Source: Iphione sp. A-MEVVRFRX5
Lineage: Eukaryota
Assembly (NCBI GenBank): GCA_976226885.1
Contig: OZ320323.1
Span: 28,210,001 to 28,274,000 of the forward strand
Direction: 5' to 3'
DNA: 64,000 bases
Shown: positions 1 through 47,108 of the stretch, piece after piece
How the letters are laid out: each line of letters starts with the position of its first letter
Numbering within the stretch: the stretch's first letter is position 1
Notes under the pieces: generated by a model
Told to the model about the DNA's origin: nothing
The model's database searches: none
What the model saw: only the letters and a program-made list of their open reading frames with translations
Translations under genes and position numbers: made by a program

Positions 1-187
1 ACAGGTGGGAATTTGGCAGGTATGCCTTGAGACCCATAAACAGGGCCATAAAAAGGGAGAAGTATTCCTCACCTGTCGGATCCCTCTCAGATTGAGTCAT
101 GGCAAGGTGTAAGTTCTCTTTGATCTAGTAACTGCTCTTGCGAAAGAGGGGAATTGCTCATTCCTGCCTGGATTGCTTCGAATTGCG

Positions 188-559
188 TCACGAAATGTTG
201 GAAACTTGCTGAGTATGCATTTGAAAAGGAACGTTAGTGTTCCCGAGATAAGGAAAGGCCGGATGGGTACACTGGGTATGCTGAGCCAGCCCGGAGGGTT
301 TGGGCATGGTCGATCTAGTTTTTGCGATGGAGTCGATCTTTAAGGGAGTCGTTGATCTAACACTTGGACAAAAGAAACATCTCAACCGTCTGCTCTGGGC
401 ACCCTGGTGTAGCTCCTTCACGTGTCTCTCCAGAGACAAACCTCTCCAGAAAGGCCTCCTCTTCTCACAGAACTCACACAAGGCTGCTCCCTCTGGGATG
501 GGAGCTCCCTCTTTGAGCACCCGGGGGAGGCAAGGCTTCCCAACCTTTTGCCTTGCCAT
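188..559 (-). CDS. Accessory ORF with two C2H2-like zinc-finger motifs, inside the gypsy element
   Basis: CEFC-x14-HVKELH and CFFC...HTQCTH; ATG at 559 preceded by acceptor-like TTGACAG; possible 5'UTR intron 562-859 (donor GTAAGC). Confidence 0.55.
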   Translation of the reverse strand: MARQKVGKPCLPRVLKEGAPIPEGAALCEFCEKRRPFWRGLSLERHVKELHQGAQSRRLRCFFCPSVRSTTPLKIDSIAKTRSTMPKPSGLAQHTQCTHPAFPYLGNTNVPFQMHTQQVSNIS

Positions 560-1399
560 GACTGTCAACAATTCGTCGGACCTTGCCAAGGGGGCCCCGC
601 ACCCTCACGGACTTGCCTCGTCAGGGAACCGCAACGGCGACCACTTTGGGGTACCCCGAGCAACAGAGGGATACGACGGCTCACCAGGCCGATAAACTCG
701 AGGGCCCGCGACGGCCGACGGCCCCGAGCGTTCACCAACAAAGTCAACGTTACCACCAGAAGCTAGGTGCTTCTTTGAGTCCGGGGGTCCACAACAGGTC
801 ATAAGTCGGGGTACCCCGACCAGCAGTTCAAATGCAATGGTGAAGAGAGGATGGCTTACCAGATCGATGAACTTGGGGTACCACGATGTCCGATTGTCGG
901 CGGTCAACACTCCTCTGGCTTTGCTTCTCCTGGACTACAATAAACACAACAGAGCTTCCTTGCTTGCAAGGCAGGTTCCTTCCTCTAACTCCTCTTCCCT
1001 GTTTAGTACAAATCCTGTGGCAGCATCCCCTTCTTTTTGGGAAAAACAAGTTTGTAAGAAGTCAGTAAACTTCTACCTCCATGTTACTCAGTTGGCCCTC
1101 CGCGCGATCTGAAAACGAGGCTGACCTCGATCTCAGTCCGGTCGGGGTTCCCCAACCCGATTTGACATCGCTTCCTAATTTCCAGGTTTCTTTCTGTTGG
1201 GGGCCCCCGACTAACATAATTTCTCTTTTCGGCTCGCTTGAAAATCAATTGACGCTGTTTCGTACATTCCGGAGGTATCCGCTTCACTCGATTCCGCCCT
1301 TGCTGCCTATTCGCGTGGTTGGGGGTCCCCAACCTCATTTTTTACACAGTTATCCGGGCGACCGGGGTTCCCCAACCCGCTGTCGATTCCCGCTTCGTC

Positions 1400-1435
1400 T
1401 ATATAAATGAGCGTGGCGGAGGCTCGGCGTCAGTG
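1400..1435 (+). promoter_or_regulatory. TATA box + initiator of the antisense gene
   Basis: TATATAAA with TCAGT about 30 nt downstream. Confidence 0.55.
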
Positions 1436-1675
1436 TGTCTACTGCCTTCGTCGTGATCACATCATGGATGTTCCTGCTTATCTGACTGGGGCCACCCAAA
1501 ATGGGTTGTACCTGCCTGAAGATGGTGACATTTGTTTTCCTCCTCCCAGGATGAGGTAGGTCTCTTCCCTTGAGGCAAGGGATCCTCACTGTTGCCAGTT
1601 CTGGAGACCATGTTGCCACCTGGCAGTTAAGTTGGCCCTCCTTGGAGGCCATGTTGACATCTGGCAGTTGAGTTG

Positions 1676-1733
1676 ATGGTGCTGCCTCTTCATGGCTCTA
1701 CCCCCGGATGCTTTGGCAGGTAAGTGGTCAACC

Positions 1734-1776
<43 letters not shown>

Positions 1777-2470
1777 CCCTTTCTCTCTTCTCATTTACAG
1801 GTCACCCCCTCCTGACAGCTATATGCGATACGTCGATATCGGAACCCCTGGGCCCACCATTCGCATCTTCGGACTACATCCGGTCATCAATCGGCCCCTC
1901 TACGTGTCTGCCCCAGGGGAGGTACGTCTAGTCGGGCCCTACCACTATGTGGACATTTCAATCCAGCCCATTTTGCCTCCCGTGGCGCCACCGACCGGCT
2001 TCTGGGCACCCCGCTTGGATGTGGTGTCCCCGGACCTGGGCCCCGAAGAACTCACCCCGTATCTTACCACCCTGGAGTCTGGGCCCCCCCATGAACAAGA
2101 CTACAGGGATCGTTGGTCGCCTGCCTCCCTGTCTACCTCGATCTTGGACCCTTGGCCATCCTCCTCTCCCTCCTGGTCACCCAGCACCAGCGCTACTTCT
2201 ACATCCAGCTCATCTTCATCGCCTCCCGCCTCCGACTATCCTTGCTCTCCTTCACCGATGGAATGGGGTACGCCAGTAGACACCCCTTCTCGCCCCACCC
2301 CACCGAACTCGCCCGAAGCAGGTCCCTTGCTCAGCCATGCTCATCTTCCTGCCTGGACGCCAGAGATCCTGGAATCCTGTTATCCCGGTCTACGGCCGGG
2401 GGACTGTCCCTGGTATCCCGTGGTTATCTCGGACACTGATGAGGGCGAGTCATTCAGGGGATACATCTAA
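1676..2470 (+). CDS. Antisense spliced accessory gene, join(1676..1719,1801..2470), ~237 aa Pro/Ser-rich protein of unknown function
   Basis: Intron GTAAGT (1720)...poly-T tract...TTTACAG (1800); splicing removes an in-frame TAA and joins ATG 1676 to the 215-aa ORF; TATATAAA at 1400-1407, Inr-like TCAGT ~1430, AATAAA ~2539. Confidence 0.6.
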
Positions 2471-2954
2471 TTGGACTGGGGGGGTGGGGATGTCGTATTA
2501 CCTTGCTGCTGTTTTTGTTATTGCATGGCTTCAGTAATAAATAATATAATAATTACATTCCTGGTTGGCACCCTTTTCTGCTTCTCACGATTGTTGCAAT
2601 CATCCTGCCATTCTGGCCAAGTAACTTCTGCCGTAGATTATACTTGTACATTCTAGTAGTTTACTGTAATGCGGTGACTACATCTTTTAAATGAATGTCC
2701 CATATCACCTCCATTAACAGGTTTTGCCACCCTCTTCCAGAGGACATAAGAGCAGCTTGGCATCTTACCCACTTCAAGAGGACAGTAGAGCAACTGGGCC
2801 CGCTTGTTCCTTTCCATGGCCGTGATGATGTCCCGCCCTTCGTCCAGAGGACATCTCCTCAACTTGGTCACCTTCTTCAAGAGGACGTAAATGCAGCTTG
2901 GTATTGTACCACTTCTAGCAGCACAATCCTGGTTACTTCTGCCTTCTAGTCCCC

Positions 2955-3915
2955 TTAACACCCCGCTCCAGGGGTAATCTTCTGTTTCGAGCAGTCCCAG
3001 GGCGTTTTATTTACCCTCACGGATCTTCTTGCGCATTCTTCAGGGTACTCATCCCCCTTGTGGGTGTCTGGGTTCCTCCCCAGCTTTTCTCGGTGGGATC
3101 CCCTTCTCCGGGACCCACCGCTTCCCCCACCATGGACCTTTTTGCCTCCCCCCCTCTGGCGATGGGGGGGGGGGCCCGGATGTCCGCCCTCCTCTCATGA
3201 GTTTTCTGAATGCCGCCAGGATGTCCGTCCTCCTCGTAGGCTCTTCCGCACTTTCCCCATGCCAGGGTGCCTACATCCCCTCAAAACTCTTCCGACTGCT
3301 CCAGGACACCATCCTTCTTCAGTATTCCCAGGGCCCTAGGGCCCCGTGGTCTTAGCCTTTTCTTGTTGTCTTCGCCACGCTACCACCCACCGGGGTACAG
3401 CCTCCCCCTTGTACTCGCGTACCCGATTTCGGTGTACGACCTTCGGTTTGGCTTGTCTGGCTCGCTGAATTACCACTCGCTCATCATCCAGCTTCTTCAC
3501 CACTAGCCATGGCCCTGTCCAGGGGAAGAATATTTTTGGACTTCTCCCTTTTGGGGGCTGGGCGTCGTGTAACCAGACCAACTCTCCGTCCGCAACAGGG
3601 TGTGCTCTTGCCCTTCGATCATAAGCCCTGGCCTGTAGCTTGGCTGCCCGTTGCAGGTGTAGCCGGGCCTCCCGATAGGCTGCTTGGAGGCGCTGCGCAA
3701 TCTCAGCTACCTTCTCAGATAACGGCTTCTCCTCTTCAGAGGGCTGAGGCACCCCGTCAATAGCGTGAACTGGTAGAATCACCTCCCGCCCAAACATAAG
3801 CATGTTGGGCGTATAACCCGTACCAGCCTGAGGGGAGGCGCGGTAAGCCATCATCAGGTAGGGTAAGGCTTCATCCCATTCGTCTTCCACCTCGTGACAG
3901 TGGGCCTTGATCATC
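2955..3915 (-). pseudogene. pol: Integrase C-terminal part and degenerate tail
   Basis: DEWDEALPYLMMAYRASPQAGTGYTPNMLMFGRE, ...KIFFPWTGPW...VVHRNRVR (GPY/F module); RRSVRVNKTPW tail near 2995-3030. Confidence 0.85.
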
Positions 3916-4738
3916 CTTGGATGCCGCAAAGATTCCCTCATGCTTCTTCAACACCTCTTCTAGTGCCCCCAGTTCTGGTTCGGACAGCTGGCTTGCAGCC
4001 GCAGTCAAGAGGGTTCTCCAAGCCTTGTCTGGTTCTAAGCAAACGCTGCGTACCTTGGGCCCGGATGCCTGAGGGGGCTCCTGTTCACTCACAGGCTGGC
4101 CCATGGCTAATGGGGTCCCTTGTTTCAGCACCACTGCTCTCTCCCCTAGGTTCCATAATGGTAGGGTCGTTCTAACTATACATCGTATCCCGAGGATACC
4201 CTTCCCCAGATTTTCCTCAGCCCCCCTTCGACAAGGAATGAGTTCCCCTAGCCACCCCCTCGCCAGCTGGTAGGGTTAAGTCATGAGCAAGACACAAGGG
4301 GGTCTCCTGTCCCCACTCTGCCGGGTCGATCCCCCTGTGGTTAAAATTTATCTCTCCTCTAGCTAAGTCTACCACTGCTTTGTGGTGGTTCAAGAAGTCA
4401 CTCCCTAGTATCCCATCCCCCTGGATCCTTGCTACCAGGAATGGATGTTGAAAATGGCCCCCCGCAATCTCTAAATCCAATACTTCTTCCCCTAAGGTGG
4501 GAATGACATGTCCTCCCGCTCCCGAGATCCGGGTTCCCCCCTTTTCCTCATCTAGGCCAGGGGCCACATCAGGGTTGATAATGGAAACTTCAGCTCCTGT
4601 GTCCACCAAAAACATGTGAGTATTGCCTCGAAGGCTTACCTGCAAGTGTGGCCCCTGGCCTTGTTCCACTATCCGCCCTGTAGGGGTCTTGTCAGCCGGG
4701 CCTCCCTGGCCTACTGGGCCGGCTGTGTTCTGTTTCCC
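3905..4738 (-). pseudogene. pol: pol N-terminus: retropepsin-type aspartic protease and pre-RT linker (frameshifted)
   Basis: FLVDTGAEVSII...GILGSDFL (ORF 4217-4759); LEEVLKKHEGIFAASKDDQG linker (ORF 3871-4134). Confidence 0.88.
4680..4738 (-). promoter_or_regulatory. -1 ribosomal frameshift signal (G GGA AAC + downstream stem/pseudoknot)
   Basis: Heptamer at 4732-4738; 6 nt later CAGCCGG pairs with CCGGCTG; loop GTAGG can pair with downstream CCTAC; the -1 frame is the protease ORF. Confidence 0.75.
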
Positions 4739-5554
4739 GAAGTGGGTAACTCTGGACAATTTCTCTTAAAATGCCCCTGCTTCCCACACTGATAGCATCC
4801 TGTAAACCGGGGCTTACGGGGCTTGGTTTCCTCCATGGCAGCATTTTCCTCGCGGAATTTCTTCAGCTCCTGAGCTATCACTTCCTCCATCTCCTTCTTC
4901 CAGGCTGGAACAGATGGGGTCTGTTGCACAGTATTGACGGTCTTGGCGCGGAACCGCTCCTGGGTCTCCATAACCTGGATGGCGTTATCCAGCGTCGTGC
5001 ATTTCGCTTCCAGGCATTTCAGATGGAGAGTATCTGCCAGTGCCCGTTGAAAAGCAGCTACTGCTGCCAGCTCCCGGGTTTCCCCGGTGACGTCCGGGTA
5101 GGCTGTTCTAACTAGCCGCCTCACTCTATCGGCTAGGTCTCGTACGTCTTCTTCTTTCCCTCGCCTCACCCCCCAAAAGTTTCTGCATGGCGATTACCCA
5201 GTCCCGCCGGCGGCCAAACCGCCGCTCCAAGGCGGCCACCCTGGAGGCGTAGTCCTTCTTTTCTTTGACTGGTAGATCGCCATAGTACATACGGGCCGCC
5301 CCCGTAAGAGACAAGGTTAGGGCTAAACATTTCGTACCTTCTCCCCAGTGACAGGCATCAGCCCATTCTGTGAACTGCCCAATCCAGCTATCCCAATCAA
5401 CAGTCTTTCCATCAAAGCGTTCCGGTTTCAAGGTGTTTACCTTCAAGGGCTCTTCAGGGGCCATCACAAAAGGCTCCTCCCCCTCCTCGTCCGGAGTTGG
5501 ACTGGGTACACGAATCTGCACTTCATCATCAACATCTACATACCTTGTAGCCAT
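4711..5554 (-). pseudogene. gag: gag (capsid-like region + CCHC zinc knuckle), one frameshift near 5170
   Basis: ORF 5126-5554 (KPERFDGKTVDWDSWIGQF...LSLTGAAR) and ORF 4711-5169 (CYQCGKQGHFKRNC) join if the G6 run near 5169-5174 loses one base. Confidence 0.88.
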
Positions 5555-5566
5555 CTTGCTTGGGGA

Positions 5567-5584
5567 ATCCCACTTCTGACACCA
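5567..5584 (-). promoter_or_regulatory. Primer-binding site complementary to the 3' end of tRNA-Leu (CAA type)
   Basis: Minus strand TGGTGTCAGAAGTGGGAT right after the LTR end ...TTACA-C; the plus strand reads GAATCCCACTTCTGACACCA, the 3' end of eukaryotic tRNA-Leu. Confidence 0.9.
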
Positions 5585-5585
5585 G

Positions 5586-6117
5586 TGTAATTTGCGTGTT
5601 TAATCCTCCACTTGGGTGTATCCAACTATTGTTACTACAGTCCAGGCTTAGTATGATCCACTGAAGTTAACCCATGTATCCTCCCAAGAGGTAGTCCCAA
5701 GTGGTTATGTGCTGCTAAGGTTCCCCGGAAGAACAAGTGCCACAAAGGTAATCCAAGTGCAAACTGGTTTATTGGTCACACAGGACCCATATTTATACCT
5801 CTCAAACAAGTCATGTGATCACAGAAAATAGCAACCATGTACTCTTCTTTGGAATAAAATGTATACAATGTCTCTTGTGTTGTCATTCTACACCAATCAG
5901 CTGTTGGCACCCTGGATGGTACCTAGAGATCCAGGGGCTAAGGTCACCTCTAATCTTAACTGGTTCGGGGTACCCCAACGATCCTTATATCTGGGGGTCA
6001 CTCGGTGCATCTAAATTCCCCTTGTGTCTGGGGTACCCCAGCCCAAACCTTCCTAGGGGTGAACAAGTACATTCAGACAAGCAGCTCAACCCTAGCTGAC
6101 TCGGGGTACCCCGTACA
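5586..6117 (-). repeat. 5' LTR (~532 bp)
   Basis: TGTA at 5586 and TACA at 6114-6117; 1 nt from the PBS; minus-strand TATAAA (5792-5797) then AATAAA (5768-5773). The outer boundary is inferred because the second LTR is not visible. Confidence 0.75.
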
Positions 6118-9100
6118 TGAAAGTTCTCCCTCTCTACAGTACGTATATAGTCAGTGTTTCCTTTGGACTGTACACAACTACTATGTCTGATGATAAAAAA
6201 GTAAGGAATGCTTTACACAGAAAAACGTAGACAATAAGAAACAGCTTGTGTAATCTTATAAATTGGTTTCTATGTGTAACACTGACAGGCATAATTATGC
6301 GTTTTACTCCAGGTCTTGGATGAAACACCACCTAAAAGTAACGGCAATGTCTGCATGTATGTCATGCGGTGAGGGTCAGTGGACATTGATATTATACACA
6401 CAGGAATGTCCTTGATCTATATTCACTGCAGTTTAGGGTTAATATAATCGTTGGCATGTAATACAGGACTGGCCTGTACCCTGAAGACTTGGATTACCTT
6501 GGACGTGTTGTCTTTTCTTCTCCTGGAGAAAATTCACCTTCCTGTGGTCACCTCAGTGCTATCAAATACCAGGTTGCATAATCATGTAGCCAATAAATAT
6601 TGATATCCTACTATGCAAAGCAATCTCCCTGAAACAGAAAAAAAGTAAACACGAGTTGTCCCCCATAAAGGACTGGCTCTAAGGGAGGGGGGGGCGGGGG
6701 GTTCCCTTCTTCTCAAATCGCTGTCTGTACCTATTGTCTTCAGTTATCTCCCTCAATCCATATTTGGGGCCAATTTGTTGATTTGGGCCATAAAACGCCA
6801 AGTTGATTGTTTGCGCCTTTCAATATTTGGTACCATTTGTTTATTTTCCCTTTTACGTACATGTCTTCTTTATGCAGAATACATTCCGGGTCATTTTGTG
6901 ACTTTGGGTCACTGGATGCTATGTGGAAAGTTTGCATCTTTCAAACCGCTTGAACCCTTTTAGCCATTTACCAAACCCTTCCTTTTTATCTAAAACACAT
7001 TTTGGATCATTCTATAGCTTTGGAGAAACATCTCTTTGAATCGGTTTGCAACTCTGGGTAACAGCAAAAAAAAACAATTTCAGAGAAAGGGGACAGTATA
7101 CCCTTAAACATGGCCGATTTTGTCCATTTTGTGCCCTTCTCTTTCATCTCGGATTCATCTATTCTCGACAATAAAATTTTTTTGTGGAGACAAAAAAACA
7201 TTTTACACCAGGTGTACATTTCGGGCCTTTTTGTCTATTCCTACCCTTCATCCATTTTCGCCTCTCATTCTTAGTTCTATTATGAATCGAATCATACGGT
7301 AACTTTCAACCATTTCCTGCTGATGTCCTACATTAGTATTTAAAGACATACTAGATTCACGTGAAACCTTTGAAAGCAGACATGTGACCTCTCACAAACG
7401 ACATGTCTGGCCGCCGTGGTCAGGGGTCAACAGCCTAGAAATTGTATTTCCTGGCTCACCACTACGGACATAGCTATAGGTCAGAAGCAATATAAAAATG
7501 CACGTTATTCAAGTGAAAGAAGTACTTTGTTTAATAAACCTGGTGGCTGGTGAATATCCTACAAGTACAGCACACACACATTTGTTTGGGACATGAGGGG
7601 GAAATCAACAAGAAGTAAGGAACATGGCGAGTACTCTTTCCTGCTCAGCTCCTTTTCTTCAACCTTCTATGTTTTGCCTTAGAAAAGAATGGAGCTCAAA
7701 GCTGCCAGTTGAAGCTACACGCGTATATGGCATGAATTGAATATACATGAGTGTATATTTATTCGATTAACTACCCCTGAAGTAGCTTACCTCTCCTGTC
7801 TGGATCAATTACGTAGGCTTTCTCGATCCATGCGGATACCATCATATATACCCACAGCAGTTCACAGCAGCCACTGTATGGCTATCGTCAAAACACAAGA
7901 CGCCCACTTAAAGATTATGAAAGCGTTAGTCCTCAAGTTCCCTTCCTCCGTGGCAAATTCCTTTCTTCCATATTCTGCAGCTTAATACTGGCCAATGTCT
8001 ACTTTGTGAACATATTTAAAATTATTCTGAGTCTTTATACCCCATAGACAATTTTGCATCACAGTTGTGCCGGGAAATGTACAGCTAAAATAGTCAATCC
8101 ATTTGAGTACAATCAGTTTACGATCAGCAGTCTAGTTACATTCTGACAAAGTCTAGCTGAAGACATGGAAAACAGTAATGTAACATTCCTGCGAGAAAGA
8201 GAAAAGAGAGAGGATGTGAAAGGGAGGGAGAGAGAGAAGGTGAGAGGGGGAAAAGGAGCTGAGGGGCAAAGACTGGTAGACACAGAGAGACAGGATGAAA
8301 GGGAGCGGGAGGGGGGGGACATCCTGTCACCAGTTATAGAGAGGGAACTTGAAGTATCCATATCCATACTGGCACTCCAAAAATAGTACATAATGAAACA
8401 ACTCCTGCTGGATCTGTCAAGACAAACATGCTATGCAGAAAAAGGCCTCCTCGCGACTGAGGTCAACACCATCTCAAATCTTTTGTCGAGGGAATAAAGA
8501 AAGTTGAATCTTATTTATTAATATGATCGTTACCTGCGAGTAGACATGAACATTAGTTCATCTTGTCGCCATTTCTTCTACTGTGCTATCTGAAGAATCT
8601 GAACATCCACGCTACAGGCTACCATAACTATTCAAAAATGGTGCCATTCGTAATCAGCTACAGTTATAAAAGAGTCACATTTCAGTAAGCTGGGCATAAT
8701 CCACATCTTTATTCGATTACAAGATATAATTCCTAATAAGGGTTCCTGGCCTTGTTTTAGCTGTGACCCAAACTATAGTATTCACTGTTTACTTTTTTTG
8801 AGTGACACTAGAGCTGGACCAATCACAGTGTATCCCGCCCAAGATGGGGGAACTTGCACCATAGAAAAACAAAGCTGTCTAGCACTGCAATAAATTGGGA
8901 GGTTAAATATCTCTTTTAATATTGCAGATAGACTTATTTGCTTTAAATAGCATAAAGAATATAAATTAACCCTGCTTCTAACCAACATTTGTATTTTTCC
9001 ACCACATCGACTCTGAAAGTTGACAGGGGGAGGAGTTATCACCTCAAAAGTGACAAGTGAATTCTAGCTGGCTTTGTGACCCATACTTCAACTATGACCA

Positions 9101-10914: not shown

Positions 10915-12270
10915 TTTTTTTTTATTTTTCTTTATTTCACCTGATATTTATATACAATAAGTACGATTTCTCAGGTCTCTTTCATATCATGTTTACGAGT
11001 GTAGTGTATTTACAGGAGGTGTTGTTATTTGCATATATACATATCTATACATACTTTGATACATTATGTACAGTAGTATGGTTATTATGATATGAGTACG
11101 ATAATGGGTGAATGCTGACGCGGGTAGATGTTACCTTCATTCTTATTGTCAACTTTCCCTCCTAGACATTGCCCAAGGAGTACGCTATAGCCGTAAATTT
11201 TGAATCTCACTGTTGCAATTAACATCACGTTTCATTACATTCGACTGTTGTTACGATGGGTCCTTGACAGATATTAAAGCCTTCCAGACATAGCCCAGGA
11301 AGATTACCGACTGTCCCATAGACTGATATGCCCAATGGGAGTTGATGGCACCATTTACAGTTGTTCTTGTTGTTTTAAGAGTAGTTTGACTCGTTTATTA
11401 AATTCCTTTTTGGGACAGCTCGTTATCGACACCGGTAGACTATTCCACATCTTTCCTCCAGCATATCCTATACTCTTCTTGAATGCTTCGTAGTTAGGTT
11501 TCTCGATTACAAATCTTGGCTTTGCATCATTCCGTGTTTTCATGTTGTTAGACTTGGTGGTCTGTCCTAGGGAGTGACGGCTGTACATTATTGAGAGAAC
11601 CCGGAAATTCCTTCTTGTAGAGAGATTGCTGATGTTAGCGTCCTTTTTCGCCTGGGACGATCGTATCGGGTGATTGTAGATGGTTCGTATTACTTTATTG
11701 TACATCTGTGCCAGGCGCTGGAAGTTTTGAGAATTTTCTCTGGTGAACAGTATTACACCATATTCCAATTGTGGCAATATTGTCGTTTTCACTATCAGTA
11801 TTCGATCCTTGAGGGTTAGCAGATTTTTCAATTTTCTAAACAGGAACAGCTTCCTACTGACTCGCGATAGAACTGAGTCAGTATGCTTTTCATAGGACAT
11901 GTTGTTGTCAATCAAGACCCCTAGATACTTGTATACGGGGACATGTTCTAAGGTGTAATTATCGTAGAGTATGTTAGGTGGGTCTCTTACTGGGTACCTA
12001 TATCGATACCACATGGCCTTTGTCTTTTCTCTGTTAATACAGATTCTATTGTCGGTTGTCCATTTATGGATTGCACTAACGTCAGTTTGGATGCGTTCTG
12101 TGGCCTGGGTTCTTGTGTCGCCGATTGCAGTGATCACCATGTCATCTGCATAAAGTATAGTTTTGCTAAATTTGCAGACTTGTACTATTGGGTCGATGAA
12201 GATAGTGAATAGAAGTGGACCCAGTATGGATCCCTGTGGGACACCGCAGGTTATTTTTGTTTTGTCTGAT
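10915..12270 (-). mobile_element. 5'-truncated non-LTR retrotransposon (CR1/L2-group LINE)
   Basis: RT motifs CGVPQGSILGPLLFTIFI and LYADD, then YKYLGVLID; frame open to the stop at 11355; 3'UTR ends in AATAAA and an A-rich tail at ~10915-10937. Confidence 0.9.
11355..12268 (-). pseudogene. LINE ORF2 C-terminal fragment (RT thumb and C-terminus)
   Basis: The 261-aa ORF 11355-12140 extends upstream in frame through YADD and GVPQGS. Confidence 0.88.
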
Positions 12271-13067
12271 ATTAATCATATATATGTAACATAGGAAGTT
12301 AGTTTTAAAAGATGTGCTCCAGTAGAATTAATTACAGCAGTACGTCAGTGCCCTCACCAAAATATGTATGGAAAACACAATCATCGTTGACTTCTAGAAA
12401 TAGAGTGAAGTTTAACTTATTTATCCTTCCATGGTGATCCTCCTCGTTCAGTTTTTTCCTCCGAAAGGAACGGTTAGTTCTGGGCCTCGAGTGCCCTTAG
12501 ATATGAACGGATTCAGGTCTTGGTCTGCCTAGGATGCTAAGGGATTCCGTGTTTGATTAAGCTGCTAGGCTGAGAGTAGGGTGGGACACAAGTGTCTCGG
12601 GTCAAAGCTAGGAATACAGCCATTGCGCCGGAGGGCTGGGATTATTTCATCTTTAGACCACTCCTTTATCGAATCCCTCGTGTAATAGTCCGTCTACTAT
12701 AGAGTTTTATGGTTGGGAGAAATTTTCTCAGTAACACATGGTAACTTGTATAGTCGTGTATGTTCCAACATAAATATCTATGAGAAAGAGGTGTTATATC
12801 AAAATGGAAACCACAAACTCATATTGACAGATATTGTGGTATACAATTAATATTTTTATTCTTCACACATAATTCACTGCTTCCAAACAAGGATCAAGTT
12901 GAATTCACATGAAAATATTTTCGTAATTGACCGCACAGCAGTATCTTCGCTCTCTTCTTTTTCCTCTATATCTTCCATACATCCTTTCATGTTGCTCACC
13001 AGTCCTCCTGTTATCTCTTTATCCCGACCTACCCAGTTCTTTATCCCTTTCGACTGCTCTCCTGCTC

Positions 13068-16739: not shown

Positions 16740-18660
16740 ACCAGAAGAAAGAACCCTGGAGTATCACAGACAGAGCTCAGCTTGAAATTCTCCTCGCAAT
16801 AGGGGTTTGCTCTACCCAGATCAACACTGTCAGACATCTTGAAGAGATCATCCCATTGGATGGGTATGTCCAGTGACAAGGGCAACCTATGTCATCAACA
16901 CTCACCAACAGAGGTCAGATTTGAACAAGCCTTGTCTATCTGGTTCAGTGATGTATGTGGTCAGGGTGCTATTCTAAGTGACAATATGCTCATCATGAAA
17001 GCAAGATGTCTACGTGGGCAACTGGGTTTGGCTGATTTCAATTAGAGCTGAGGCTGGCTTGGTCCTTTCAAGACAAGAAATAACATTAAGTGCTTCAAAC
17101 AGCATAGCAAGTCTGTGTCAGCAGATCTTACCCAAGTTGAAGAGGGTCGCTCATCCCTCCAGGAGGAATTGTCTGGTTTTGACCCCACCAACATACAGGG
17201 GAAACTCGCTTTGCGACCACCACTTGGGTCGGCCCAAAATGGTCGTAATTCTGAATATGGTCCCAAAGTGATTGTGTATGGGGTCTGGGCTTGAAATCAT
17301 ATCCCTTTCTCCCTCTCTCTTTATTAACATATGAAACGTCCAAAAAGTGCTGAATTGGACCATTTGACCTGCGACCACTGCTGGCAGACCCTCTCCAGGG
17401 TGAGAGACCATCAAAGACGTCGGAGTTGACACCCTCGACCACTGCCGGCCTCACCCCTCCAACGTGTGAAACCATCAAAGACGTTGCAGTTGACACCTGC
17501 GACCACACCTCCAGGGTGAGGCGGTCGTATAGTGATATTAAAATGTGCTGAAAACGACCCTAGGAGGTGTGGTCGCAGGGTGAATTTGGTCGCAAAGCAA
17601 TATGGTCGCAAAGTGATATGTTATCATATGGTAAATGTACTAAAATTGCTTCCGTTCCGACCCAAAATGGTCACAATAGTCGATTTGGTCGCAAAGTGAG
17701 GAGGTCGCAAAGCGAGTTTCTCCTGTATACAGTGTGGATGAAACTTGACTCCTTTATCATTTGAAGCCTACCTCCACCCTCTCCACTGCTGCTCTCAAGG
17801 AGGAGAAGAGGAGTAAAGATCAAATCACTGTTGTATTGCCGAGCAATGCGACAGTAGATTTTGTCCCCTGGGTACAGGTAAATGCTTCTTCAGGGGTTTG
17901 ACCGTGGGATATATGTTCGTTATCGTCACAACCAAAAGGCATGGATAACATTCACATTCTGGCATGACTGCCTCCATATGTTGAATCAATGAGCGAAAGG
18001 CCAGGTACAATCTCACCTGGAAATTCGTCCCCCCAAACACAACTGCCCATGTACAGCCCTTAGATGCTTGTATCATCGCCTCTTTCAAAACACATTACAG
18101 GAGGAGGCTGGTGAGACATTTTCTGGATTGTGTAGAAAGTGATGCCCCCATGGTCACAAATCTCAGGAAGGCCATCCTGACGCTTGCTGAAAGCCTGGGC
18201 ATCTGTGAGATCAACCACCATCCAGAGGTACTGGGATTATGTGAATATCCTCCCAAGCCAAGGCAACACCACATCTGAAGATAACTACTCAGATGAAGAT
18301 AATCTCCTTTGTCTGAACTCCAGACACTGCTCCAGGCCATGCCCGGTGAAGGTGGGCAACCACTGATGCCTGCCAAGGAGTATGCCCAGGTAGACTCTGA
18401 GGCTGAAACAGCTGGAGATTTGACAGATGGGGCCATCCTGACTCTTGTGACTCAGCCTCAGGTGACAAAGGATGACACTGAGGACATTACCCCAGCTCCA
18501 ATCACCCTAAACGAAGTCACCAAGTCAGTAGACATTCTTGTCAGGCTCTGTAAGGAGCAGCAAGATATCACTAGGATACCATTCCTCAGGGATCTGTTAC
18601 AGAATGCCCAGAAAACCCAGAAGAGTAAAAGACAGACATTCATCCAGGTTTCTTTAAGTG
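16740..18660 (+). pseudogene. Decayed pogo/Tigger (CENP-B-like HTH + DDE_1) transposase
   Basis: FEQALSIWFSDV...GWLGPFKTRNNI HTH; NIY|SVDET split by a MITE; PPNTTAHVQPLDACIIASFKTHYRRRL; AWASV; KRQTFI tail; several stops and frameshifts. Confidence 0.85.
17196..17725. mobile_element. Tc1/mariner-pogo type MITE (530 bp), TA TSD
   Basis: TIRs CAGGGGAAACTCGCTTTGCGACC / GGTCGCAAAGCGAGTTTCTCCTG; TA on both sides; removal restores AAC ATA TAC AGT GTG GAT GAA ACT (NIYSVDET). Confidence 0.92.
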
Positions 18661-39984: not shown

Positions 39985-42322
39985 TCTTTCGATCTCTGTC
40001 CGTCTGTCTGTCTCTGCTTGGTATTTGTTGTCCAGGAAGTAATTCATCTCATCTAGGATCCAGTAAACAGTTTAGTTTTATTACTACATCACTAAATATT
40101 GGGGGGGGGAATTCCTACAGCACCCTCCCCTTGCTAACAGGTGTGACCCATCATAAGACAGGACTCTTATGGAGGTGTCTCTGGCGTGCGCACACAGAGA
40201 CCTGCGCATGCGTGGGAATGCTCATCACCAAGCTACAGCCGTCGGCAGCGTGTAACATAAGGACGCCCAAAGAATTCCCATTCAGGCGTTGTGTTAAAAG
40301 TTCCTCCCCACCAGACGGTGGCTGCGAGTGACACTATAATTGACAGAGGGGTGTTGTTTGATGTGTCCCTTGAGCTCTTCCTGCGTCCGCTGTGTTTACG
40401 GTGTTTCCTATATCCTTGCACGGTTGCCAGAACGGCGCTATTGGATGTTGTCCTTTGTTAGCATTTTTTTTTATAAGAGCATTACCTGATGGAGAAAAAT
40501 CCAAAATTCCCCGTCGTTCACTCACCCTCTCTCTATCTGTCTCTGTCTACCTCTTTCTCTCTCAGGAGAGACGAAGTGGATATTCTCACCACCAGTATAT
40601 TGCGAGAAATGTACAGCCATTCGAAAACGTTTTCAAACGCTTTGAAGTTGTGGTTGGTAAAATTTGTAATCTGCCAATGTCTCTTTGACACAAATAGCAA
40701 ATTCATACAGGTCCCATCCTACTGCCGTCTGTTCCATTTCTGGTACTGGCCCAGTGACGTCCCATTTTCTTCCCAGCTGTCCCACAAATTACGCCCATAT
40801 AACCTTCATGTTGTAGGTACAGTTAAAGAACTGTTATCATGTAATACGTGATTTTTATGTGGTGCATGAAGGTATGACTTCAATACAATCCTCTGAAATC
40901 GAAATGGAAGCATAGGCTTCCGGTATGTATCTGAATGTTATGAGTTGAGTTAGCAATTGATGTGTATGTGTACTTTGCCTCATCCGTATGTTGCCCTATA
41001 AGGACCTTAGCTCTGTTTGCTATGATTACCTCATGTCTTATATAACCATGCTGCACTAGTACGTGAGGAGCACTGCTTCATGAAAACATTAATTGACAAG
41101 GAGACACTCACACAGAGAACTTGTGTTGTATCCTTCTCCCTCTCCCTGGGACCTGGAGGCACTGTCTGACACAGCCATGCTGCAGTGTCATGACTTGCAT
41201 CAACTATCAAGTTCATCCTGATCGTGCTGTCAGCATTTCGACAATCAAAATGTTTTTTGTCAGCTTATCAGGAAGCCAGTAGGAAGAATTCATTGCAAAA
41301 ATGTCTGGTTAAGCATAACCCTCGGCTCTGACGATTTGAATAATGTTATAATTCCTAATGGGCTATGTCCTTTTTTTCGCATAGGAAAAATAAGTTCCAC
41401 AACGTAGCTCCAAGTACAGACTGCTTTATGTGCCACAAGAGAGTCATAAACCTGGGTCATGTGACCCACGTGCACCTGACGAATTACAATAAAGTACGGA
41501 ATGAAATTGATACTGTGTTGCTCTTTTATCGCAAGTGACTTTTTCTGCACGAATTAAGTACTGGAGACTTGACTACAGAGTATTAGATGCCTAGACCACC
41601 AGGGACCCACTCACTGCTATATGTTGTAGAAGTGAAAATCCAGGACCCAAAGTCACCTCTAACTTCGAACATATTCACAGAGTACATGTCTTAGATAGAT
41701 TTGGCGGGGGTACCACGACCACCTGTTCGTCGTAGAGTTCACAGAGTACAGCTTACAGGAAAACATGGTTTGTGGCATCGCGACCACTGGTCACAGTGCC
41801 CTGACCATCTGCACAATATGAAATCATACTATTACAGAATACAAAATACAGTTTTTCAGGTTGTTTTTACTCGCAGTACCCAAAGAGTTAAAAAAGCATC
41901 AGGTACGAAGGTCAAAGCCACCTCTAGCTCTTTGACCAACATGAAATAGATTTAGATTGACCCTATACGTAGTTGAGTCATGTTGCAAATGAAGCTCATG
42001 TATGGCAAGCCTCCTGAGTATATGCATTCAAATACAAAATAAAGAATTACAGTCTGATACTAATAAATAGGTATATAAAATATGAAGTTCATCTTTATAC
42101 CCCTTTCATGGTATTATCACTGGCTGGGATGGGAAGTGACAGTAAACCCTATGGCATATTCACAACAGGCACTCTTGTATATATACCTATTCACCCACCG
42201 CCCAGTACCAAAAACAGAGGGTAAAGCCCAATATGTGAGAGATTAAACCTTACGGGTAAAGGCCATACCATGTTTTAAACTCTTTTCTTCCAAATTTATT
42301 CCTTTTTCCTCAATGGACGTAT

Positions 42323-44248: not shown

Positions 44249-47108
44249 TCATTTGCCTATCCTAGCCTTGAGTTGTTGGAACGCATCAGTGTGCCACAGA
44301 TTGAAGCAATTTCTTTCTCCACTAAGACAGATGGGTACGTTGCATTGCTCTTCTGAGCAATACCATTTGGTCTTGTTCTCCTTCCCATGCAGAACATAGC
44401 ATACTTTGCAGTTGCGGCGTGTTGAAGAATGCATTGGCCTGTGAACACCATCGAATCCAAAGTGGCTTCTAATACGTGGTCTCAAGGCAGTATGGGGGTT
44501 TTCTTCCAAGTCACTGATTCCAGCCAGCTGACGACAGAGTTCTTCACGAAAATTCAGGTGTGAGAATCCGCTTGGTCGTTGTAGAGCAGTTACCTCGGGG
44601 TGCAGCTTCTGCCACTCTTTGAACAGCAAGAAGCTGTTCAGCACCGACATATCCAGCAAATGATAGAATAGTGTCTTCCACCATTTTTTTGATTTGTGCA
44701 GCATGGAGTATGTCCCCAGGAGTTGGTCAGAGATGTCCACCCCGCCCATGTGTGAGTTGTAGTCATGGATAGCCAATGGTCGCCTGATCATCATTTCCCT
44801 GTGACTTCCATCAGGTAGTTTCAGGTGACGCCTGACGAAAACATAATCACATCCTCTGTGCATGCTGCTGCAGGCACACACGGGCCTATTGTCCAGCCAT
44901 TGTTGACAGAGGATCCTGTCTGTTCTAATGAACCGTGTGTCTCCTCTTTGGGCTGCCTTTGCCCATGCCTTGTCTCTGAGGGCCTGCAATATTTAAGTGA
45001 TAGTATTTACAAATAATTCAAAACTATGAAGGATGAAGATTACAGTAAAACCCGATGTGCTTGCCTTCTTTCATCATGCTTTATTGTAGATCGTTTCGGG
45101 ACACTCGACCCCCTTCATCAGGAGTCTTCATACTTTATAATTAATTTAATTTTTTTTTTAATCTCAATGTAAAACTCACCGCAGGAAAGCCACGCCGTGT
45201 GACCACACTCGTTCCACAAGCAGCAGATCCCCTGGACATCAGACATTTGATGAGTGGCAGAGATGTAAAGAAATTATCAAAATATATCTTGTACCCTTGG
45301 TCAAGATGCTGATCCATGAGGTTAGTAACAACATCGTACCCAAGGCCATGTTGTGATGGGCGCTGACATCTACCAGTGTATACACTGTAAAAACAGTCAA
45401 TATCAGATATTCATTACATGCGCTGAAACTGTCTTGGCGCAAACATTTGGAATTCCATTCTGGATACAGTTGAACCAAATATATGCATGTTAATACCAAG
45501 TGCACCAAAATTGTTAAACACACTACTTCCATCACAAAGACAACACTTATGCACACCTGAAGTTGATGGTGTAACCTGTTGTCGACTGGCATAAGCACCA
45601 CAGCTTAAAACCAAACCGTATTGGTTTATTGGGTATAAATTGCTTCAGACTGCATCGTGCCTTTGAGCGCACCATACGTTCGTCCACAGCTACATGTTCC
45701 TTGGGTTGATATAAACTTGAACACATCCTCCTGACATGATCCAACACTGGTCTGACTTTTGCTAGGTGGTCAGTTGGGTCCTCTGCAGATGGGTTACTTG
45801 CATGCAGCATGCTAGAGATGGCCTTGAATCTAAAAGAGAGAGGATTACACTTCAAATACCTTATGCCTTAGTACATATGCCAATTTAGAATTCCAATGTT
45901 CATCATGTTGATGCTGAGTACAGAAACATGCAGGTTCTTAGTCTCAGGTACTTAGGTATTTAGTCGCCCTATCAAAATGATTCTGTTTTGGCACTAAAAC
46001 CTACACACCCATGGTTCTCTAATATTTTCCATTTCACCCAATTTTTCGTTGTGAGTATGTGGGCCAACAAGAAGCACGGGGCTCACCGATTTCTGGAGAG
46101 AAAGCGTGATGCCCATCCACCGGAGTACAATGTTGACTGATTCCAATAACGTGACACATCATGAAGTTCAATGAAACCCATCAAGATACACAGCGCTATG
46201 AATGATCTCATCTCTTGAAATGTCACTTCGTCCCAGGTACCTTGTGGGGTAGCATACGATGGCTTGTTATGGATCGTCAGCCAGCCATACAAATTAGTGT
46301 TATCACACAGCATCTGCAGAAGCAAATATGGAAGGATGTTCATCCCACATAGGATTCAATGAGGGCTACGATAAGGGGATGTTACAAATCATAAATACAT
46401 CAATGAAATGAACATATATATGATACAGTTACACATGCACATACTTGCATCAATTCATGAGTGAAGAATAGCTGGAAAAAATCCACAGCTCTGGTGAGTC
46501 CTTCCATGCGCCATCTCGTAATCCTATCTGATACATGGGGGCCTGGAGCCCGCATGGGAGTGAATGCAGGTATACTTGGATGTGAGTCGTCATCCTCATA
46601 TGTTTTCGGCCTGTAAAAAAAAAGTATATTAACAAATGTTTCAACACTGCCAATAATGACTATCCATAGCGCAATGGATAGCGCACTTGCTTTTGGTGCG
46701 CACGACCCGGGTTCGATTCCCAGACGATTTTTCTGTCAACAGATGAAAACCTTTTTTTTTCATTAAAAAAAGCACAACTATATAATAATTATATTTAAAA
46801 ACATAGTTTTACATTTAATCTTGCAGTTTCACCTTAATTACGAGATAATTTGGCAAAAACGTTTGTTAATCATAGAAGATTCACTTTTACCTTGATGTTA
46901 TTGGACGAGCAGCTCCAACAGCCGGGACTTCTTCCATCTCTTCTTCATCAACTTCCATCATTAAATCATTCATCTCAATTTCCTCTAATTCTTCCTCTTC
47001 ACCTGATGACATCCCTGACATCTCGTCACTTTCCAAAGCTTTTTTCCCTTTTCCTGAATTCCATAACTCCCGAGCTCTTAGAGCAGCAGATCTCACAGTA
47101 CGTGACAT
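44249..47108 (-). CDS. piggyBac (PGBD4-like) transposase, six exons: 47108-46891, 46610-46445, 46313-46087, 45829-45557, 45384-45180, 44983-44249; 607 aa
   Basis: All five introns are GT-AG with matching phases (2,0,2,2,0); 1824 nt open; acidic N-terminus, DFFQLFFT, VAVDERM, NKPIRFGFKLW, FDNFFTS, YNSHMGGVDISDQ, KKWWK, C-terminal CKVC...C...C...C...CFNLWH domain. Confidence 0.93.
45078..45125 (-). ncRNA. Hammerhead-ribozyme-like core of Penelope-like-element type in transposase intron 5
   Basis: Minus strand CTGATGA-A-GGGGG-TCGAGTG-TCCC-GAAAC-GATC followed by AATAAA; helix I partner not evident. Confidence 0.45.
46660..46732 (+). ncRNA. tRNA-derived Pol III-type unit (not a canonical tRNA) in transposase intron 1
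   Basis: A box TAGCGCAATGG, B box GGTTCGATTCC, then TTTTT; the acceptor stem does not pair. Confidence 0.5.

Follow-up and report, generated by a model that had tools for sequence, protein, structure and literature searches.

A Ty3/Gypsy retrotransposon at the start of a 64,000-nucleotide stretch of Iphione sp. contig OZ320323.1 (hereafter the window, meaning the whole stretch that was analysed) carries an array of 12 copies of a G-run/C-run palindrome, of which 3 lie in the U3 region of its long terminal repeat (LTR), 4 upstream of the TATA box of an antisense accessory gene and 5 upstream of an open reading frame (ORF) for a two-finger C2H2 protein. The array, its geometry and its placement are seen directly; it is a real and highly non-random cis-element, and we consider it very likely to be functional. 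Our favoured reading, which we hold only tentatively, is self-recognition, in which the array would be read by the two-finger C2H2 protein of the element's own family.

A palindrome array of fixed geometry

The original prediction had placed exact copies of GGGGTACCCC at 648, 808, 5967, 6030 and 6103, variants at 875, 1144, 1199, 1321 and 1364 and a perfect 16-mer palindrome at 805-820, and a check of the sequence found all of them in position; a further site, at 590, has a 1-bp centre and stands outside the palindrome family. Comparison with shuffled sequence, which the prediction had suggested, revealed a strong excess. Within 1-6139 there are 5 exact copies of GGGGTACCCC against 0.03 expected and 9 of GGGG-NN-CCCC against 0.7 expected, and neither count was reached in any of 1000 dinucleotide shuffles of this segment. 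When one mismatch was allowed, GGGGTACCCC gave 10 matches in the 64 kb against 1.07 expected (0/100 shuffles). The remaining 58 kb of the window (6140-64000) contain no G4-NN-C4. A lone near-match to the palindrome occurs in the flank at 41704-41719, with no further similarity to the element.

The conserved unit spans about 18 bp (GGTYGGGG-NN-CCCCRACC) and is thus larger than the 10-bp core. Among the 18 half-sites of the 9 full copies, position -1 is always a pyrimidine (9 C and 9 T). T occupies -2 in 14 of them, and G occupies -3 in 11 and -4 in 12; further out the information fades. Taken together, the flank TY accompanies 14/18 half-sites and GTY 10/18, compared with 6/81 and 0/81, respectively, for the other G4 runs of the element. 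The spacer in YGGGG-N-CCCCR is 2 bp in 9/9 sites, and no other spacer between 0 and 15 bp occurs within the element. Its sequence is TA in five of the nine, including all three LTR sites (the other centres are given in Table 1). Imperfect copies at 623, 783 and 875, the first two being the weaker, bring the total to 12, and the cores of three copies are broken.

All 9 full sites are non-coding, lying outside ORFs. The outer flanks of the copies agree at chance level (mean 10.7 of 40 positions identical, best 19, in 132 comparisons), so the copies are not recent tandem duplicates. The original prediction had further proposed that one factor, either host NF-kB or the element's own zinc-finger protein, coordinates the LTR and the accessory genes. 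Its first half is supported, since the same site of fixed geometry occurs in both regions and the 6-mers common to them exceed those of 200/200 shuffles; either of the two named readers would be compatible with this evidence.

The accessory region and its two genes

The two accessory genes had been predicted to diverge from the region 600-1400. Their ORFs do face away from each other, and the zinc-finger ORF is sense to gag; it may be expressed from a candidate promoter of its own or by splicing from the LTR. On the minus strand no TATA box was found in 1-1200, the one at 1400 being on the plus strand only. Four of the five palindromes upstream of the zinc-finger ORF fall within a possible intron (562-859), which is proposed from splice-site motifs only. 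A strong donor-like AAG/GTATGT (5537-5546, minus strand) stands right after the gag start and might splice LTR transcripts to acceptor-like sites near 1109 or 562. The observed/expected ratio of CpG is 0.91 in 590-1400, 0.24 in the LTR and 0.60 in the flank.

The zinc-finger ORF of 123 amino acids is shorter than those of complete relatives (at least 245 amino acids in the first set), and its finger 2 has a long loop, in which short repeated segments (AGATC...GAC; 300-360, minus strand) are found, perhaps as local duplications. It has no Pfam match of its own and no homolog in the word index; among 1.84 billion proteins it found only generic finger matches, the 7 representative ones being generic multi-finger proteins, and the Atlas gave generic C2H2 clusters only. 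A single-sequence fold prediction was uninformative, with a predicted local distance difference test (pLDDT) score of 43. The predicted antisense protein is Pro/Ser-rich and ends in VVISDTDE, which resembles a SUMO-interaction motif (SIM; VVISD) with an acidic tail; no homolog of this protein was found in searches with its second exon. The accessory protein of the related element L149 likewise has a hydrophobic-acidic end, IVVDLTD.

C2H2 genes and family-specific U3 arrays in related elements

Relatives were collected as matches in integrase and reverse transcriptase (RT) scans, on contigs inside bacterial genome records, where these contigs are probably invertebrate host DNA. A quick tree places the focal element inside a 47-row integrase clade, on a long branch. 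Two features of this clade are observed directly, one being a C2H2 ORF and the other the U3 arrays. Of the 24 in-clade relatives that have 1300 bp or more beyond pol, 12 carry there a sense ORF with a CxxC...H...H/C finger, as against 0/5 informative relatives outside the clade; the ORF is also found in 10 shorter contigs, with L107 as one further case. The six metal ligands of the focal protein are invariant in an alignment of 20 element-encoded proteins (the focal one and 19 others), 13 of which match a Pfam C2H2 model, and elements from a separate genome record likewise bear one or two such fingers. The distribution of the ORF within the clade, the invariant ligands and the Pfam matches therefore make the zinc-finger gene a feature of the lineage.

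The repeats that stand in U3 just before the LTR TATA box differ by family, being GCTCC in L034, AAGGT in L081 and L083, ACTCC in L109, CCAGC in L092 and L217 and GGCCA in L160. In L219 (2270-2370) the U3 array consists of GGGGCGCCC-type sites, which are close both to the focal motif and to the motif of the zinc-finger protein PLAGL1 on protein-binding arrays. The G4-NN-C4 motif itself is family-specific, because only 5 scattered occurrences were found in 66 loci (473 kb) of relatives; none of the relatives has an array of it, with at most 2 occurrences per locus in the later set. No matches came from gag scans of viral and genome contigs or from integrase scans of viral contigs. Within the open-access literature, a scope that leaves aside subscription journals and Repbase, no description of the C2H2 ORF family or of the palindrome motif was found, and the available part of PMC13524379 makes no mention of zinc fingers.

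Several other observations concern the relatives. L143, L145, L149-L151 and L153 are complete, having two LTRs and a C2H2 ORF downstream of pol; the U3 of L143 and that of L145 each share a CpG-rich ACGT/ACGCGT tract with the spacer ahead of this ORF. A subclade (L112, L114, L115, L119, L121 and L122) has ORFs of 500-970 amino acids after pol, with no finger match. The bacterial genome record behind L034 (G001) gave 107 integrase matches to eukaryotic retrotransposons, which amounts to heavy contamination with host repeats, and other bacterial genome records are affected too.

Fit between the fingers and the arrays

The original prediction had named the element's own zinc-finger protein as a possible reader, and for the lineage some of the evidence points in that direction. 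In an occupancy swap test, triplets predicted from the finger helices with a simple recognition code (helix positions -1, 3 and 6) were scored in each element's own U3 and in swapped U3s, using 12 lineages and excluding the focal element; L083, L101, L145 and L217 were left out as sister lineages, and so were L218 and L086, in which no U3 TATA was found. With the canonical finger order, own U3s were enriched (p 0.001-0.011 when bases and 0.002-0.018 when dinucleotides were shuffled). The control with sites read backwards gave p 0.27-0.60 (base) and 0.17 (dinucleotide shuffles), and the control region downstream of TATA gave p 0.06-0.48. Six held-out elements yielded p 0.035 with base shuffles, and tests on the top 5-mers yielded p 0.03-0.05 for 10 elements. 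Together with the spread of the ORF and its invariant ligands, these results suggest self-recognition at the level of the lineage. CCTCA arrays (L098, L101 and L085) were also tried as a match for GAG-reading fingers and rejected, that of L098 lying downstream of TATA as tandem repeats; L098 scored near zero in the U3 test.

A number of results weigh against self-recognition. Of the 12 lineages, 7 were already known when the code was written, and the rest were known before the occupancy statistic was fixed. Reversing the order of the fingers gives an equally good score (p <0.001 with base and 0.004 with dinucleotide shuffles). The five held-out lineages alone gave no signal (p 0.49-0.61; backwards control p 0.03), predictions set beforehand came true in 2/5 cases, and the top-5-mer test was not significant with one element per lineage (p 0.07-0.29; held-out 0.37-0.83). 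In the focal element itself the helices fit their own array worst (z -1.1 to -2.2, rank 17/17 among U3s), and only 3/5 coded positions match TYG-GGG; finger 1, with its two coded arginines, and finger 2, with its lysine, would nonetheless suit that sequence. Only 4/39 relatives passed a test for spaced palindromes, one of them through a plain tandem repeat; this test took loci with an integrase match (as did the other array tests, leaving out L133-L135) and at least 1000 bp of non-coding DNA, and the focal element scored highest in it, many of the relatives' contigs being without a full LTR. The same motif recurs at the LTR and in the accessory spacer in 2/11 relatives. Finally, the focal element has its long branch and its short zinc-finger ORF.

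Simple C2H2 recognition codes are context-dependent (PMC4330361), which weakens both the support from the lineage and the mismatch of the focal fingers. No match to the focal helix cores was found in the supplements of that source other than file 1. For the focal copy, self-recognition stays an unproven candidate, its own helices ranking last.

Host factors and other explanations

The alternative that the original prediction had put beside the zinc finger is a host p50/Relish-type NF-kB homodimer which would bind the 10-bp cores and so place transcription from both the LTR and the accessory region under the control of immune or stress signals. The predicted consensus GGGRNNYYCC, with its 10-bp geometry, does fit 9/9 full sites, and invertebrate NF-kBs bind all three cores for which published array rows are available (TA, TT and GT, that is 3/4 centre types, the GC centre not being found in the file; PMC5700166). 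For Nematostella (Cys), Drosophila Relish, Amphimedon and Aiptasia, in this order, supplement 2 of that source gives z of 11.6, 10.5, 10.7 and 12.5 for GGGGAACCCC (sites 1144 and 1364), 6.0, 10.7, 8.6 and 9.7 for GGGGACCCCC (site 1321) and 3.7, 5.8, 6.3 and 7.7 for GGGGTACCCC, and the same probe stands in one row of PMC8677719. Human heterodimers bind CGGGGTTCCCC with z 1.9-3.3, and on the same human array most dimers bind the TT-centred site, with weak binding to four GGTACC neighbours (PMC3218832); these near neighbours had suggested that NF-kB leaves the TA core unbound, a reading which the exact invertebrate probe contradicts. The TT and GT centres are bound well (z about 10 for Relish), and on these data NF-kB could be present at three of the four palindromes near the antisense TATA. 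The TA core that dominates the array (5/9 sites and all those of the LTR) is, however, the weakest of the 8 centres compared for Relish and Nematostella and ranks 6th for Aiptasia, with binding like that of probes which contain just one G-run. The best G4 variant, GGGGATCCCC, with an AT centre and z 10.8-14.6 in the four proteins, is used by 0/9 sites, and no 11-bp G4-NNN-C4 site is present in the element. Position 4 is G in all half-sites, though GGGAATTCCC binds equally well; the array shows neither a preference for the high-affinity centres (AT, AAT/ATT) nor a tolerance of A at position 4. Conservation also runs 4 bp past the footprint, whereas flanks barely affect the human dimers (the tested flanks were without Y), and no related element has such an array. 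A TA-dominated array with invariant G4 and conserved flanks thus makes NF-kB an awkward explanation, and we consider it unlikely to be the reader.

A class of candidates that the original prediction had not named consists of putative host zinc-finger proteins with G-run/C-run palindromes as their targets, for example of the PLAG family or the HIVEP/Schnurri type; it seems to us about as likely as NF-kB, and so also unlikely. LTR enhancers are normally read by host factors, HIVEP is a possible lead for this array, and a secondary PLAGL1 array motif reportedly contains the TA-centred GGGGTACCCC. The U3 array of L219 described above would also suit such a reader. For PLAGL1 the selected sites are G4C4 and, in protein-binding array data, GGG(C/G)(G/C)CCC (PMC5737700). 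The latter fits site 1199, but this is the only one of the nine full sites that matches either motif, the GGTY flank lies outside these two PLAGL1 motifs, and the palindrome is absent from the 58 kb of host flank. It is very unlikely, in our judgement, that the copies have no protein reader at all and are decayed remnants of old duplications of one perfect palindrome, through CpG loss, or nucleic-acid hairpins. The even C/T split at -1 is what CpG decay would be expected to leave, three cores are broken, and GGGGTACCCC clusters are also present, often close to the ends, in 29 viral contigs that are unrelated and have no homology to the element. Against this stand a core that is nearly invariant while the outer flanks are at chance identity, and the lack of any Rfam match. 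For the arms to pair despite their mismatches, moreover, G-U pairs would be required on one strand at 1144 and on the other at 1199, and a role as RNA hairpin was rejected on this asymmetry.

A possible self-regulating circuit

Under self-recognition, the palindromes would be putative sites of one symmetric, presumably dimeric, DNA-binding factor that would contact about 9 bp on either side of the 2-bp centre. It would act on the LTR enhancer through 3 sites and on the accessory-gene region, with its putative internal promoter, through about 9. The reader would be the two-finger C2H2 accessory protein of the Gypsy family, supplied by the focal copy or by a helper element, and its binding might result in activation, repression or anti-silencing. 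The outcome would be a self-regulating loop like that of foamy-virus Tas or plant VANC.

In a broader and more speculative version, which we regard as possible and hold with somewhat greater reserve, a widespread invertebrate Gypsy lineage would carry its own two-finger C2H2 factor, the fingers having co-evolved with private LTR arrays. In the focal element the array would have been extended to a second control region, between the sense zinc-finger gene and the antisense gene with its SUMO-binding-like tail, giving a retrovirus-like circuit that host immune signals might also enter through the partial overlap of the array with kB sites.

Structure of the element and its surroundings

The element is on the minus strand and the window opens inside it. 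Its place in Ty3/Gypsy follows from a TG...CA LTR followed by a primer-binding site, which we take to be of the tRNA-Leu type, and from gag, protease and integrase, the last of these in final position (Table 1). The outer edge of the LTR is inferred because the second LTR lies beyond the window. Intact RT and RNase H, which an autonomous element would have, are absent from the focal element, only a stub being left between protease and integrase, and gag is split in two frames; the focal Gypsy copy is defective because RT and RNase H are missing. For gag, a relative with a single frame, P0012, is 83% identical and shows that there is a sister family, and the integrase is 33-37% identical to those of full-length elements that have RT ahead of integrase.

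Table 1. Positions in the window of the parts of the Ty3/Gypsy element, its accessory genes and its repeated sites
Feature	Position	Strand	Evidence or remarks
Two-finger C2H2 ORF, 123 amino acids	188..559	-	Sense to gag; six Cys/His positions invariant in alignment
Five palindromes upstream of zinc-finger ORF	623..884		Sequence; 648 and 808 exact; 623, 783 and 875 imperfect
Four palindromes upstream of antisense TATA	1144..1373		Sequence; 1144 TT, 1199 GC, 1321 GT, 1364 TT
Antisense accessory gene, predicted exons 1464-1555 and 1801-2470	1464..2470	+	In-frame GT-AG splice prediction
Antisense gene signals	TATA 1400; AATAAA near 2536	+	Sequence
Second, unrelated array: four copies of a 31-nt unit, GAGGAC core	2730..2901		Between integrase and poly(A) signal of antisense gene
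Post-protease stub and C-terminal part of integrase	3336..4275	-	ORFs, Pfam, relatives
Aspartic protease	4217..4765	-	PF13650, PF13975, PF00077
gag, two frames, zinc knuckle	4711..5554	-	ORFs; PF00098
Primer-binding site, one base past LTR end	5567..5584	-	Sequence
5' LTR (TG...CA), Ty3/Gypsy	5586..6138	-	Sequence, edges, adjoining primer-binding site; outer edge inferred
AATAAA in LTR	near 5768	-	Sequence
TATA-like box in LTR	5788-5799	-	Sequence
U3 palindrome core, TA centre	5967..5976		Sequence
U3 palindrome core, TA centre	6030..6039		Sequence
U3 palindrome core, TA centre	6103..6112		Sequence

The flank of the element holds a non-LTR reverse transcriptase fragment (11355-12275, minus strand), a small element (17193-17728) that has inverted ends of 29 nt, contains internal GGTCGCAAAG repeats and adjoins a DDE_1 transposase fragment (17985-18275), an exon of a rhodopsin-type receptor (32347-32826, minus strand) and a DDE_Tnp_1_7 transposase fragment (44249-44992, minus strand), presumably piggyBac-like. 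The receptor exon and the transposon fragments, which are of animal type, indicate that the host is an animal.

Comparison with known systems

If self-recognition is true, each Gypsy family would offer a natural pair of fingers and site, and so a direct test set for C2H2 recognition, and the system would shed light on the ways in which selfish elements evade silencing or keep their copy number down; if NF-kB or a PLAG protein reads the array, it would be an ordinary, if tidy, host-factor array. The kB sites of retroviral LTRs are well known. Ty3/Gypsy elements with extra genes between pol and the 3' LTR reportedly include Oikopleura Tor (PMC4402516) and bdelloid ORF3 elements (PMC5408684); the literature listings for these two mention neither a tandem C2H2 ORF nor an LTR array that would match it. 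To our knowledge element-encoded sequence-specific readers occur only in foamy viruses and plant VANDAL transposons.

The kB sites of p50/Relish-type NF-kB have 10-bp GGGRNNYYCC cores bound above background in vitro (PMC5700166, PMC3218832), and the focal array departs from them in its weak TA centre, in the absence of the best variants and in conservation that extends past 10 bp. PLAGL1/Zac1 sites resemble the array in having a G-run followed by a C-run, a C2H2 reader and several sites near a start, and differ in that the two motifs given above have a C/G centre or none (PMC5737700).

Among systems with a reader of their own, the motif recognised by VANC of the Arabidopsis VANDAL transposons is short and particular to a family, is concentrated in non-coding regions of the same transposon and differs between related families (PMC5735166), and the focal motif is likewise family-specific and dense in non-coding parts (9/9 sites). 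VANDALs are, however, plant DNA transposons, with asymmetric, co-oriented motifs spread by tandem repeats (PMC5735166), whereas the focal sites are palindromes with unrelated flanks, show no co-oriented tandem spread and would have an anti-silencing role only putatively. Foamy-virus Tas/Bel1 is an element-encoded DNA-binding protein with targets in the 5' LTR and in the internal promoter of the accessory genes (PMC517496). The layout described here is alike, with the same site in the LTR and upstream of the accessory genes (0/200 shuffles), but the focal element is a Ty3/Gypsy element in which no env was seen, its candidate reader is a two-finger C2H2 protein, its site is a repeated 18-bp palindrome, and both the binding and the internal start are putative. 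On these comparisons the focal system belongs to neither the Tas nor the VANC family.

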